A DNA stretch of 64,000 nucleotides from Escherichia coli. GTDB lineage: Bacteria > Pseudomonadota > Gammaproteobacteria > Enterobacterales > Enterobacteriaceae. The stretch is taken from assembly GCF_003790525.1 (NCBI RefSeq), contig NZ_CP033635.1; one strand, given 5' to 3'. The notes beneath the pieces were generated by a model. That model made no database searches. It was not told the DNA's origin and saw nothing but the letters and a program-made list of their open reading frames with translations. Numbering within the stretch: position 1 is the stretch's first letter; every line of letters begins with the position of its first letter. Shown here one piece after another: positions 59,899 to 61,362 of the stretch. The position numbers and the translations under genes were made by a program.

Positions 59899-59901
59899 TA
59901 C

Positions 59902-60588
59902 ATGGACGTATTCATGCAAAATATTATTCTTTTATTTATATATTTATTACTTATAGTCGTTAACCATTTCCGCTACAAATTCCTTTTGTCTGGCAACACG
60001 GGTGAAATGATTTTATATTTTGCTAACGTATTTTTTAACCCACTTGCCTTATCATTTATTATCGCCACAATCATCTGTATAACGATAAAAAAAAGAAGCA
60101 GCCACAGCTTTATTCGCGGCACTTGTTGGTTAATGGGATTATTTCTTATCTATAGCAGCTATACAGTGTGGGAACGACACAGCACATGGGATTATACTTT
60201 CCCGGGGCCAGGTATCACCGTCACAGTTCCGAGCAAACAGTGGGTTGCCAATATAGTAAAACAAGGACCAATCCTGGTGACTCGGGATGCCCATGCTATT
60301 TTAGTTATTGTTGCCTTCTCACAAAATGAACTCGGTGTGCATTCAATCGAGGAACTTACCGCGACTCAAAACGGAACTGCAGAAATGCATGTTTGTGATG
60401 TTAAGGGATTTGCCTGCGCTTATCAGGAAGGAATTCAAACAATGAGTGATGGCAAAATAAGACATGCTATTTTCATGACTCTACTGGATAACACTAATTT
60501 GATACGACTGGTCGCAGCTATCGACCCAGATTATTTGGACGAATATCAAGAAGAAGTAATGAAAATGATACTTTCTGCCCATCAATAA
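59902..60588 (+). CDS. hypothetical membrane protein (3 predicted N-terminal TM helices plus ~130-aa soluble domain), paralogue A
   Basis: 228-aa ORF in AT-rich DNA; hydrophobic segments at about residues 7-23, 36-61 and 75-95. Shares conserved blocks with the next ORF. The start could instead be the ATG at 59914. No K-12 counterpart recalled here. Confidence 0.65.
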   Translation: MDVFMQNIILLFIYLLLIVVNHFRYKFLLSGNTGEMILYFANVFFNPLALSFIIATIICITIKKRSSHSFIRGTCWLMGLFLIYSSYTVWERHSTWDYTFPGPGITVTVPSKQWVANIVKQGPILVTRDAHAILVIVAFSQNELGVHSIEELTATQNGTAEMHVCDVKGFACAYQEGIQTMSDGKIRHAIFMTLLDNTNLIRLVAAIDPDYLDEYQEEVMKMILSAHQ

Positions 60589-60620
60589 TCTGATGTGCAT
60601 GTTAATAATAAGGGATTGAT

Positions 60621-61337
60621 ATGAGATACGTTATCTTATTAATACTATGGATAATAACTACTTTTCTTAGTCATCTTCAGCACAGCAACCTACTGTCTGG
60701 AGATCCTGGCATGGTTGGCGAGTATATCGGTTCAGTATTTCTGGGGCCGTTGTTACTTCCCGTGCTTGTGTCAGGTATTCTGTGCGCATTTATTAAAAAA
60801 ACACGTAACTTCGCCAGTTTTACTCGCGGGTGCTGTTGGGTATTGGGAATCCTGCTTTTATCCAAAGTCGGCAATACGTTTCGTATGTTTACCCCGTGGC
60901 AATATACCTTTGAGAATGCTGCGATAACCGTGACTATCCCGAACCGACACTGGAATACGGTTTCCATTAGTACTAATGAAACCATTGATATAAGAAGTGA
61001 GGATAATAGCGTCTTCATTTCTGCTTTCCGCCTGCCCGCAGGACGTAGCGCCGATGACCCGCTGGAAGCGTTAAAGAAGAAGCAGCGAGACAATCTCAAG
61101 GATCAATACAATGAGGAAGCCTTCCAGTTTCATGTTTGTAATGCCAAACATTTCACCTGTAAGTATCAGGATGTGTTGATAAATTTTGATGGTCAGCAGA
61201 AAAGAACCATCAGTGTTTATCTTGAAGACACCCCCAGGGCTGTGGGGATCATTGCATTAATGGCGCCAGATACGGCAGATAAATATCGCCAACAGGCGAT
61301 GGAGATTATGCTTTCCGCTAAAAATGCAGTGAAGTAA
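60621..61337 (+). CDS. hypothetical membrane protein, paralogue B of the upstream ORF
   Basis: 238-aa ORF 32 nt downstream of paralogue A with RBS aaggga; same three-helix architecture and shared blocks (RGTCWLMGLFL vs RGCCWVLGILL; HVCDVKGFACAYQ vs HVCNAKHFTCKYQ; MKMILSAHQ vs MEIMLSAKN). Confidence 0.65.
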   Translation: MRYVILLILWIITTFLSHLQHSNLLSGDPGMVGEYIGSVFLGPLLLPVLVSGILCAFIKKTRNFASFTRGCCWVLGILLLSKVGNTFRMFTPWQYTFENAAITVTIPNRHWNTVSISTNETIDIRSEDNSVFISAFRLPAGRSADDPLEALKKKQRDNLKDQYNEEAFQFHVCNAKHFTCKYQDVLINFDGQQKRTISVYLEDTPRAVGIIALMAPDTADKYRQQAMEIMLSAKNAVK

Positions 61338-61362
61338 AAAATAAGGCGCCTTGCGGCGCCTC
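61336..61362 (-). terminator. zapB intrinsic terminator
   Basis: Hairpin aggcgcc ttgc ggcgcct followed on the minus strand by tattttttac; 14 nt past the zapB stop. Confidence 0.75.

Follow-up and report, generated by a model that had tools for sequence, protein, structure and literature searches.

A 64,000-nucleotide stretch of Escherichia coli DNA (contig NZ_CP033635.1 of assembly GCF_003790525.1, referred to here as the window), identical in sequence to E. coli SMS-3-5 (NC_010498.1; SMS in the comparisons below), contains two tandem genes for small membrane proteins between rraA, which encodes a regulator of RNase E, and zapB. The first, open reading frame A (ORF-A), occupies positions 59914..60588 of the plus strand and encodes 224 amino acids (aa); the second, ORF-B, follows on the same strand at 60621..61337 and encodes 238 aa, with the Shine-Dalgarno (SD) sequence AAGGGA (60610..60615) inside the 32-nucleotide (nt) spacer that separates them. 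Upstream lie menA (58338-59276) and rraA (59369..59854, plus strand), the latter conserved in nearly all of the enterobacterial loci examined. Downstream, the likewise conserved zapB (61376..61621, minus strand) converges on ORF-B, with glpF beyond it. A terminator scan placed terminator-like hairpins at both ends of the segment, at 59875-59890 on the plus strand and at 61362-61343 on the minus strand. The latter is a GC-rich hairpin (61343..61362) common to ORF-B and zapB; its minus strand carries a T-tract and its plus strand an A-tract, which suggests that it can terminate transcription in both directions. GC content is 0.32 to 0.46 over 59850-61350, compared with 0.52 to 0.55 in rraA and menA, and is 0.385 in ORF-A and 0.437 in ORF-B, compared with 0.52 to 0.53 in the flanks. 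The segment is absent from K-12 MG1655, in which zapB (b3928) adjoins rraA (b3929) across a gap of 84 bp. An earlier reading of the window from its letters alone (the original prediction) had described tandem ORFs in an AT-rich segment between two terminators and had given rraA and zapB as neighbors in K-12; all of this was confirmed apart from the start of ORF-A.

That start had been placed at 59902, giving 228 aa. The N terminus shared by the family (MQNIILL or MRYVILL) and the Prokaryotic Genome Annotation Pipeline (PGAP) both place it at 59914. For ORF-B, the RefSeq/PGAP start is at 60711, giving a 208-aa product (WP_122991692.1) that has lost the first transmembrane (TM) helix. Judged from the alleles, this start is too short, because the 238-aa frame from 60621 is open in 11/11 of them, its MRYVILL N terminus is conserved, and it is preceded by an SD sequence (AAGGGA here; AAGGGA or AATGGA across the 11 alleles). 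The 238-aa form is also annotated in some E. albertii and E. coli records. The two products share 29% identity over 234 columns (BLASTP; E value, 1e-34) and are, by that comparison, clear paralogs.

ORF-A and ORF-B are real, intact genes under constraint. Every sampled allele was intact (7/7 for ORF-A and 11/11 for ORF-B), and the alleles encoded 7 and 9 distinct proteins, respectively. The ratio of nonsynonymous to synonymous divergence (dN/dS) was 0.2 to 0.5 for ORF-A and 0.10 to 0.28 for ORF-B, compared with 0.00 to 0.06 for menA, rraA, and glpF, values which indicate that both genes are constrained but approximately 10-fold less so than their neighbors. All of the ratios for the pair (0.10 to 0.48) fall well under 1. 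The soluble domain described below had a higher ratio than the TM region in both proteins (0.65 versus 0.18 in ORF-A and 0.25 versus 0.18 in ORF-B). The description of the pair as tandem, quickly diverging, paralogous membrane proteins without mobility genes therefore stands.

The original prediction had not recognized the protein family, and the curated libraries do not contain it: neither product had a significant match in Pfam, NCBIfam, PADLOC, or PHROGs. Pfam was also run on all 24 members of a diverse family alignment, and the matches across libraries were at noise level only (DUF7649, BOF/YgiW, and NMT1_3). No PADLOC-DB family reached an E value of ≤1 for either protein, a sequence-profile search of the PDB returned only hydrophobic-segment noise, and an Rfam scan of the locus gave nothing close to gathering scores. 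A profile search of 1.84 billion cluster representatives recovered 34 proteins with E values of ≤1e-3, and a word-indexed search of 5.8 billion sequences recovered essentially Escherichia sequences only, plus one relative with 51% identity. The 24-member alignment retains the three N-terminal hydrophobic segments, a basic KK(x)RN loop, an "(I/L)xVxVPxxxW" strand, and a C-x6-C-x-YQ motif in which the second cysteine is invariant and the first is present in 23/24 members. ORF-A and ORF-B thus belong to a small, previously uncharacterized sequence family outside Pfam and NCBIfam, which represents a new architecture, with a predicted three-TM anchor, within a known fold class. Pore-forming-colicin immunity proteins, considered as a candidate identity, were rejected for lack of a Pfam match and of any plasmid or colicin context.

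Structure prediction assigned the fold. The AlphaFold2 model built on the family alignment (mean predicted local distance difference test score [pLDDT], 87.6; predicted template modeling score [pTM], 0.71) has long helices (25 to 30 residues each) at residues 2-26, 29-58, and 63-89, linked by turns of 2 to 4 residues, followed by a C-terminal alpha/beta domain of eight strands and three helices; this soluble domain spans approximately 135 residues. The alignments, hydropathy, and the model agree in this respect with the three hydrophobic helices, soluble domain of approximately 130 residues, and cysteine-containing blocks originally described. In the model, the soluble domain has the Mog1/PsbP/DUF1795 (DcrB-like) fold and falls within that fold superfamily. 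Fold comparison figures were highest for cyanobacterial PsbP (12.8), the PDB entry 3lyd (12.4), and BT_1490 (12.0), followed by LpqN (10.8), TplEi (9.7), Mog1 (9.4), PA0094/EagT6 (9.2), Tsi3 (8.3), and DcrB (8.2), and a Foldseek search of the AlphaFold Database cluster set (AFDB50) agreed with this assignment. The kinship is seen at the level of the fold only and not in sequence. Neither PF08786 (DcrB/DUF1795) nor PF01789 (PsbP) matched ORF-A or ORF-B at an E value of ≤10, and the PsbP model was reached by only 1/24 family members, at 3.4e-3. An hhalign comparison of the soluble-domain profile with a DcrB alignment gave a probability of 0.4%, a weak negative given how shallow the DcrB alignment is (all homologs are at least 78% identical).

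The topology of the proteins can be predicted from the model. Helices 1 and 2 are strongly hydrophobic, and helix 3 is TM-like by hydropathy in several family members. Long helices joined by very short turns imply an up-down-up course, which would place the soluble domain on the opposite side of the membrane from the loop between helices 2 and 3. This loop contains four lysine or arginine residues and, by the positive-inside rule, should be cytoplasmic. The most likely arrangement in the model is therefore a cytoplasmic KK(x)R loop and a periplasmic C-terminal domain. Cys161 and Cys168 (224-aa numbering) fall in neighboring strands, 159-163 and 166-176, with a turn of two residues between them; being modeled directly opposite each other across this beta-hairpin, they can form a disulfide, in keeping with a periplasmic location.

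Characterized members of this fold bind partners rather than catalyze reactions: PsbP and PNSL1 bind photosynthetic membrane complexes, and Tsi3 and Tli proteins bind toxins. LpqN is deposited as a lipid-binding protein of cell envelope biogenesis (PDB title). PsbP, CyanoP, and PNSL1, the extrinsic lumenal subunits of photosystem II and the NADH dehydrogenase-like (NDH) complex, are soluble proteins of photosynthetic organisms exported by signal peptides; they are 10 to 16% identical to the ORF-A and ORF-B products and lack both the TM bundle and the CX6C hairpin motif. DcrB (PF08786), an inner-membrane lipoprotein of E. coli and Salmonella, is anchored by a lipid on its lipobox cysteine, whereas ORF-A and ORF-B are modeled with three TM helices and, with no lipobox visible in their sequences and no NCBIfam match, do not classify as DcrB lipoproteins. 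DcrB is also a slowly evolving core gene; its 120 listed homologs, drawn from several genera, all share 78% identity or more with the protein of E. coli. The Eag chaperones (EagT6/PA0094 and SciW; DUF1795) are soluble cytoplasmic dimers encoded next to prePAAR effectors, whose TM helices they shield (PMC7773334), whereas ORF-A and ORF-B have TM helices of their own and no effector neighbor. A multihelix anchor combined with an extracytoplasmic PsbP-like domain is also found in uncharacterized RDD-family proteins of Paenibacillus in the AlphaFold Database (Foldseek E values, ~1e-9 to 1e-8), but these are larger, use a different anchor family (RDD), and come from unrelated taxa.

The location of the genes is conserved more widely than their sequences. 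A family member lies immediately downstream of rraA in at least eight divergent enterobacterial lineages, with zapB beyond it where that side can be seen, and tblastn placed rraA directly upstream of members at loci L003, L011/13, L017-19, L021-24, L025/26, and L031. The 51% identical relative (P0008, at L003) directly follows rraA and is itself followed by a B-like paralog, an IS200-family transposase gene, zapB, and glpF. At this locus, ORF-A is 51% identical to the A-like protein and ORF-B is 40% identical to the B-like protein, compared with 35% and 26% in the cross-comparisons, which places the duplication before the split from the L003 species. Members P0033 and P0034 also directly follow rraA, P0031 (Atlantibacter subterraneus) has rraA (plus an nlpA gene) on one side and zapB on the other, and P0051 and P0056, though only ~20% identical to ORF-A and ORF-B, directly follow rraA genes 91 to 92% identical to that of E. 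coli, with zapB next in the case of P0051.

The ORFs and the flanking genes show similar levels of synonymous divergence (dS). Between SMS and L003, dS was 1.47 for ORF-A, compared with 1.25 for menA and 0.95 for glpF; between SMS and E. albertii, it was 0.34 for ORF-B, compared with 0.24 for rraA, 0.28 for glpF, and 0.64 for menA; and between SMS and MOD1-EC7003, it was 0.125 for ORF-A, compared with 0.13 for rraA. The segment contained no mobility genes, and tblastn against phages and plasmids found no phage or true plasmid homologs. Because the genes occupy the same site in divergent Enterobacteriaceae, have flank-like dS, and lack both mobility genes and phage or plasmid copies, the most economical reading of the sequences is that an ancestral gene pair at rraA-zapB was lost from most E. 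coli strains, including K-12, rather than recently inserted. The single match to ORF-A in PLSDB (NZ_CP141089.1) is a 4.94-Mb record labeled non-mobilizable and almost certainly represents a chromosome misfiled among plasmids.

Within E. coli the genes are accessory. Of 5,426 complete genomes, 660 carried ORF-A and 679 carried ORF-B. The carriers include O157:H7, O55:H7, O145:NM, and UMN026, and every copy was annotated as a hypothetical protein. The pair is listed as OI#161 (O-island 161) in Additional file 2 of PMC2241611. E. albertii, E. whittamii, and the cryptic Escherichia clades have B alone or A plus B at the same site. The segment thus has both the presence/absence polymorphism and the atypical base composition of an "accessory islet," as it had been called; the accessory part of that label holds in E. 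coli, whereas the insertion that it implies is probably wrong, given the members found after rraA in many Enterobacteriaceae and the flank-like dS.

The junction of rraA and ORF-A has a predicted two-tier hairpin (59854..59912, plus strand), in which the intrinsic terminator of rraA, with a stem-loop at 59871-59895 and a T-tract at 59892-59897, is nested within an outer stem. In the outer stem, the bases that directly follow the stop codon of rraA pair with 59901-59912, an SD-like region (AUGGAC) that immediately precedes the start codon of ORF-A. The minimum free energy (MFE) of the 59854..59912 fold is -22.1 kcal/mol (z = -4.67). Nested hairpins are also predicted in three further lineages (L003:7938-8003, L025:347-407, and L031:413-484), in which the downstream proteins are 20 to 50% identical. 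Across the four lineages, MFE values range from -22 to -30 kcal/mol and z values from -3.5 to -8.1, and the outer stem covers an SD-like GGAU or GGAC element 5 to 9 nt before the downstream start codon. The arms differ (CCAUG/CAUGG in Escherichia; CAUCC...UGUA / UACA...GGAUG in L003, L025, and L031), with pairing retained, and the empty site of K-12 has a simple terminator only. The nested hairpin is a candidate for translational coupling or attenuation across the terminator.

The ORF-A start codon lies 17 nt past the T-tract of this terminator, and a promoter scan of the interval between rraA and ORF-A found no sigma-70-like site; a promoter there was rejected for lack of both room and a consensus match. 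A terminator scan found none in the 32-nt spacer between ORF-A and ORF-B, and the two genes, from their layout, probably form one transcription unit. In O157 Sakai microarrays, ECs4854 and ECs4855 were both among the significantly changing O157-specific ORFs (PMC2241611, Additional file 2), and their log2 indices rose in parallel from approximately -0.5 at 3 to 5 h to +0.5 to 0.7 at 7 to 7.5 h, upon entry into stationary phase (PMC2241611).

These results are best explained, with a probability of roughly 40%, by a conditionally dispensable accessory pair of the stationary-phase envelope that is coupled to rraA and binds a partner on the periplasmic side of the inner membrane. Under this explanation, ORF-A and ORF-B would be paralogous inner-membrane proteins that have long been inherited vertically as a pair and have been lost repeatedly, each consisting of a compact up-down-up bundle of three TM helices and a PsbP/DcrB-like domain in the periplasm. 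By analogy with PsbP, DcrB, LpqN, and Tsi3/Tli, the soluble domain may be a module for binding or scaffolding, held on the outer side of the inner membrane, and the more conserved TM bundle would be the anchor, possibly docking the domain onto a partner in the membrane. Expression is likely to be low and linked to rraA. Transcription would occur by read-through of the rraA terminator, as there is no room for a promoter between that terminator and the ORF-A start, and translation of ORF-A would require ribosomes that complete rraA and melt the outer stem, as the ribosome-binding region of ORF-A is paired in the outer stem around the terminator; ORF-B would be carried on the same transcript. The domain assigned to the periplasm is under weak constraint, and loss of the genes comes easily.

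Several observations weigh against this explanation or its parts. With respect to topology, helix 3 of both ORF-A and ORF-B is marginally hydrophobic (crude deltaG of approximately +4.7; below 1.6 in a 19-residue Kyte-Doolittle window), and there are cytoplasmic members of the fold, such as Mog1 and the Eag chaperones, which leaves formal room for a two-TM topology with a cytoplasmic domain. With respect to the hairpin, RNAalifold on seven spacers between rraA and family members recovered the inner terminator stem only; the outer stem appears only in single-sequence folds, because its arms align poorly. With respect to vertical descent, ORF-B dS within E. coli (0.16 between SMS and O157) exceeds that of the flanks (0.02 to 0.08), which might point to allele exchange or balancing selection instead of plain vertical inheritance, and AT-richness extends to every lineage and to third codon positions (low GC3), which is unusual for a long-resident gene. 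The contexts of family members outside the Enterobacteriaceae are unrelated to one another, and no gene neighborhood among the loci read was informative on function. One O157 proteome study did not list either protein in its supplements, and the stationary-phase pattern (QT cluster 2) was common to many O157-specific ORFs (PMC2241611).

The original prediction had speculated, instead, that the proteins might belong to an immunity array or a defense module. The main rival explanation, although unlikely, is of this kind: they would be orphan immunity or protection proteins whose periplasmic PsbP-like domains bind and neutralize a competitor's toxin acting in the periplasm or on the membrane, such as a type VI secretion system (T6SS) effector of the Tle or Tse type, a colicin or other bacteriocin, or a contact-dependent inhibition (CDI) toxin; tandem paralogs would then serve against different toxin variants, and the proteins would diversify and be lost in step with toxin exposure. 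The same fold in the T6SS immunity proteins Tsi3, TplEi, and PA3488 and the fast evolution of the soluble domain lend this part of the original prediction indirect support. However, Tsi3, TplEi (Tli4), and PA3488 are encoded beside their cognate effectors and have signal peptides or lipoboxes, whereas ORF-A and ORF-B are chromosomally fixed beside rraA, and no effector, T6SS, Rhs, VgrG/PAAR, colicin, CDI, or secretion gene was adjacent in any lineage read. In all of those loci the neighbors were rraA, zapB, menA, glpF, or unrelated housekeeping genes. A fixed place beside housekeeping genes with flank-like dS is unlike mobile immunity islands, PADLOC gave no match, copies on phages or plasmids were not found, dN/dS never reaches 1, and in structure the immunity proteins are less close than PsbP, so that the resemblance carries no specific signal. 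A related proposal, that the position after rraA is a conserved slot in Enterobacteriaceae holding a hypervariable family of inner-membrane, periplasm-facing PsbP-like factors for chromosomally fixed immunity to toxins of the periplasm or membrane or for exclusion of phage entry, gated in stationary phase by a terminator that buries the ribosome-binding site and couples it to RraA translation, is distinctly unlikely; if true, it would describe a new family with an unusual, nonmobile genomic logic.

It is very unlikely that the ORFs are decaying relics that drift to loss without a function, their apparent constraint reflecting only a hydrophobic composition that avoids toxicity. In accordance with that idea, the genes are absent from most E. 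coli strains without known consequence, the dN/dS of the ORF-A soluble domain is high (0.65), the genes are AT-rich with low GC3, IS insertions and truncated forms occur, and the one O157 proteome study gave no peptides. On the other side, both frames have stayed open across a dS of >1 between E. coli and L003 with a dN/dS of approximately 0.2, every sampled allele is intact, and members only ~20% identical retain the cysteine pair along with the VPxxW and TM motifs; AlphaFold2 is confident about the fold, and the transcripts are growth-phase regulated (PMC2241611 arrays). DcrB affects phage DNA injection (Samsonov 2002, cited in PMC7773334), and a DcrB-like role as an inner-membrane factor that phages exploit for genome entry or toxins for import, or that blocks entry as in superinfection exclusion, with an arms race driving fast evolution and frequent loss, is likewise very unlikely given the lack of sequence or profile similarity to DcrB, of phage homologs, and of a PHROG match, and given that matches in BFVD, a viral fold library, were weak and limited to phage lipoproteins with TM-scores of ≤0.4.

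The genes were already catalogued as hypothetical proteins of O-island 161, and no new mechanism is demonstrated here; the useful results are the assignment of fold and topology, the reading of the pair as ancestral and lost, the strikingly conserved place after rraA despite ~20% identity, and the hairpin predicted to sequester the ribosome-binding site. Two hypothetical proteins of O157:H7 and other non-K-12 lineages thereby become testable envelope proteins, and the locus offers a natural presence/absence system for the role of envelope modules, whether in interaction with toxins or phages or in stationary-phase envelope maintenance.

Several of the loci also contained additional genes or insertions. 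At L003, the B-like paralog (8748-9500) contains a low-complexity stretch, LSQLSQLSQLSQKNDAPRQTTAPQ, inserted after helix 3 and before the soluble domain, and the IS200/IS605-family transposase gene (NF033573; E value, 4e-32) that separates it from zapB lies at 9761-10123. The nlpA gene of Atlantibacter subterraneus (L017:6796-7614; MetQ/NlpA lipoprotein, NF007364; E value, 3e-171) is inserted on the opposite strand, with rraA on one side and the family member on the other, indicating that the slot after rraA can collect other envelope genes. P0046 (L027:977-1755, contig ERR11042056_20370) is preceded by a 28-codon 3' fragment of rraA only, with a gene for a DUF4225 protein further upstream on the opposite strand, and may represent a rearranged slot or a second copy of the cassette. 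At the nonenterobacterial locus L035, a neighboring 228-aa ORF was considered as a tandem paralog and was ruled out by a check of the neighbors.

Traces of loss were found at the same junction. In a B-only lineage (L011:390-430, contig ERR11172923_120186), approximately 40 nt after the rraA terminator (ATGGACGTAGGTATGCAAGTTATACTCTTCTAA) are homologous to the start of ORF-A and terminate in a stop codon; on the sequence, this is a scar of ORF-A deletion. ORF-A is split by the insertion sequence (IS) IS903B in E. coli strain L26 (L041, NZ_CP146250.1), and strain VTB96933v (hit H24, NZ_CP178659.1) has an IS4 element in an empty, K-12-type rraA-zapB spacer, so that insertions recur at this junction. 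The Foldseek search of AFDB50 returned full-length relatives from UMN026 and Klebsiella oxytoca; its matches in Shigella were truncated remnants. Only pieces of the pair occur in Shigella (P0028 in Shigella dysenteriae 1617; Q32AA0 in Sd197, 83 aa; and A0A1S9J154 in S. boydii, 140 aa), one of which is annotated as a fusion with an IS transposase; this fits with the general pseudogenization of Shigella genomes.

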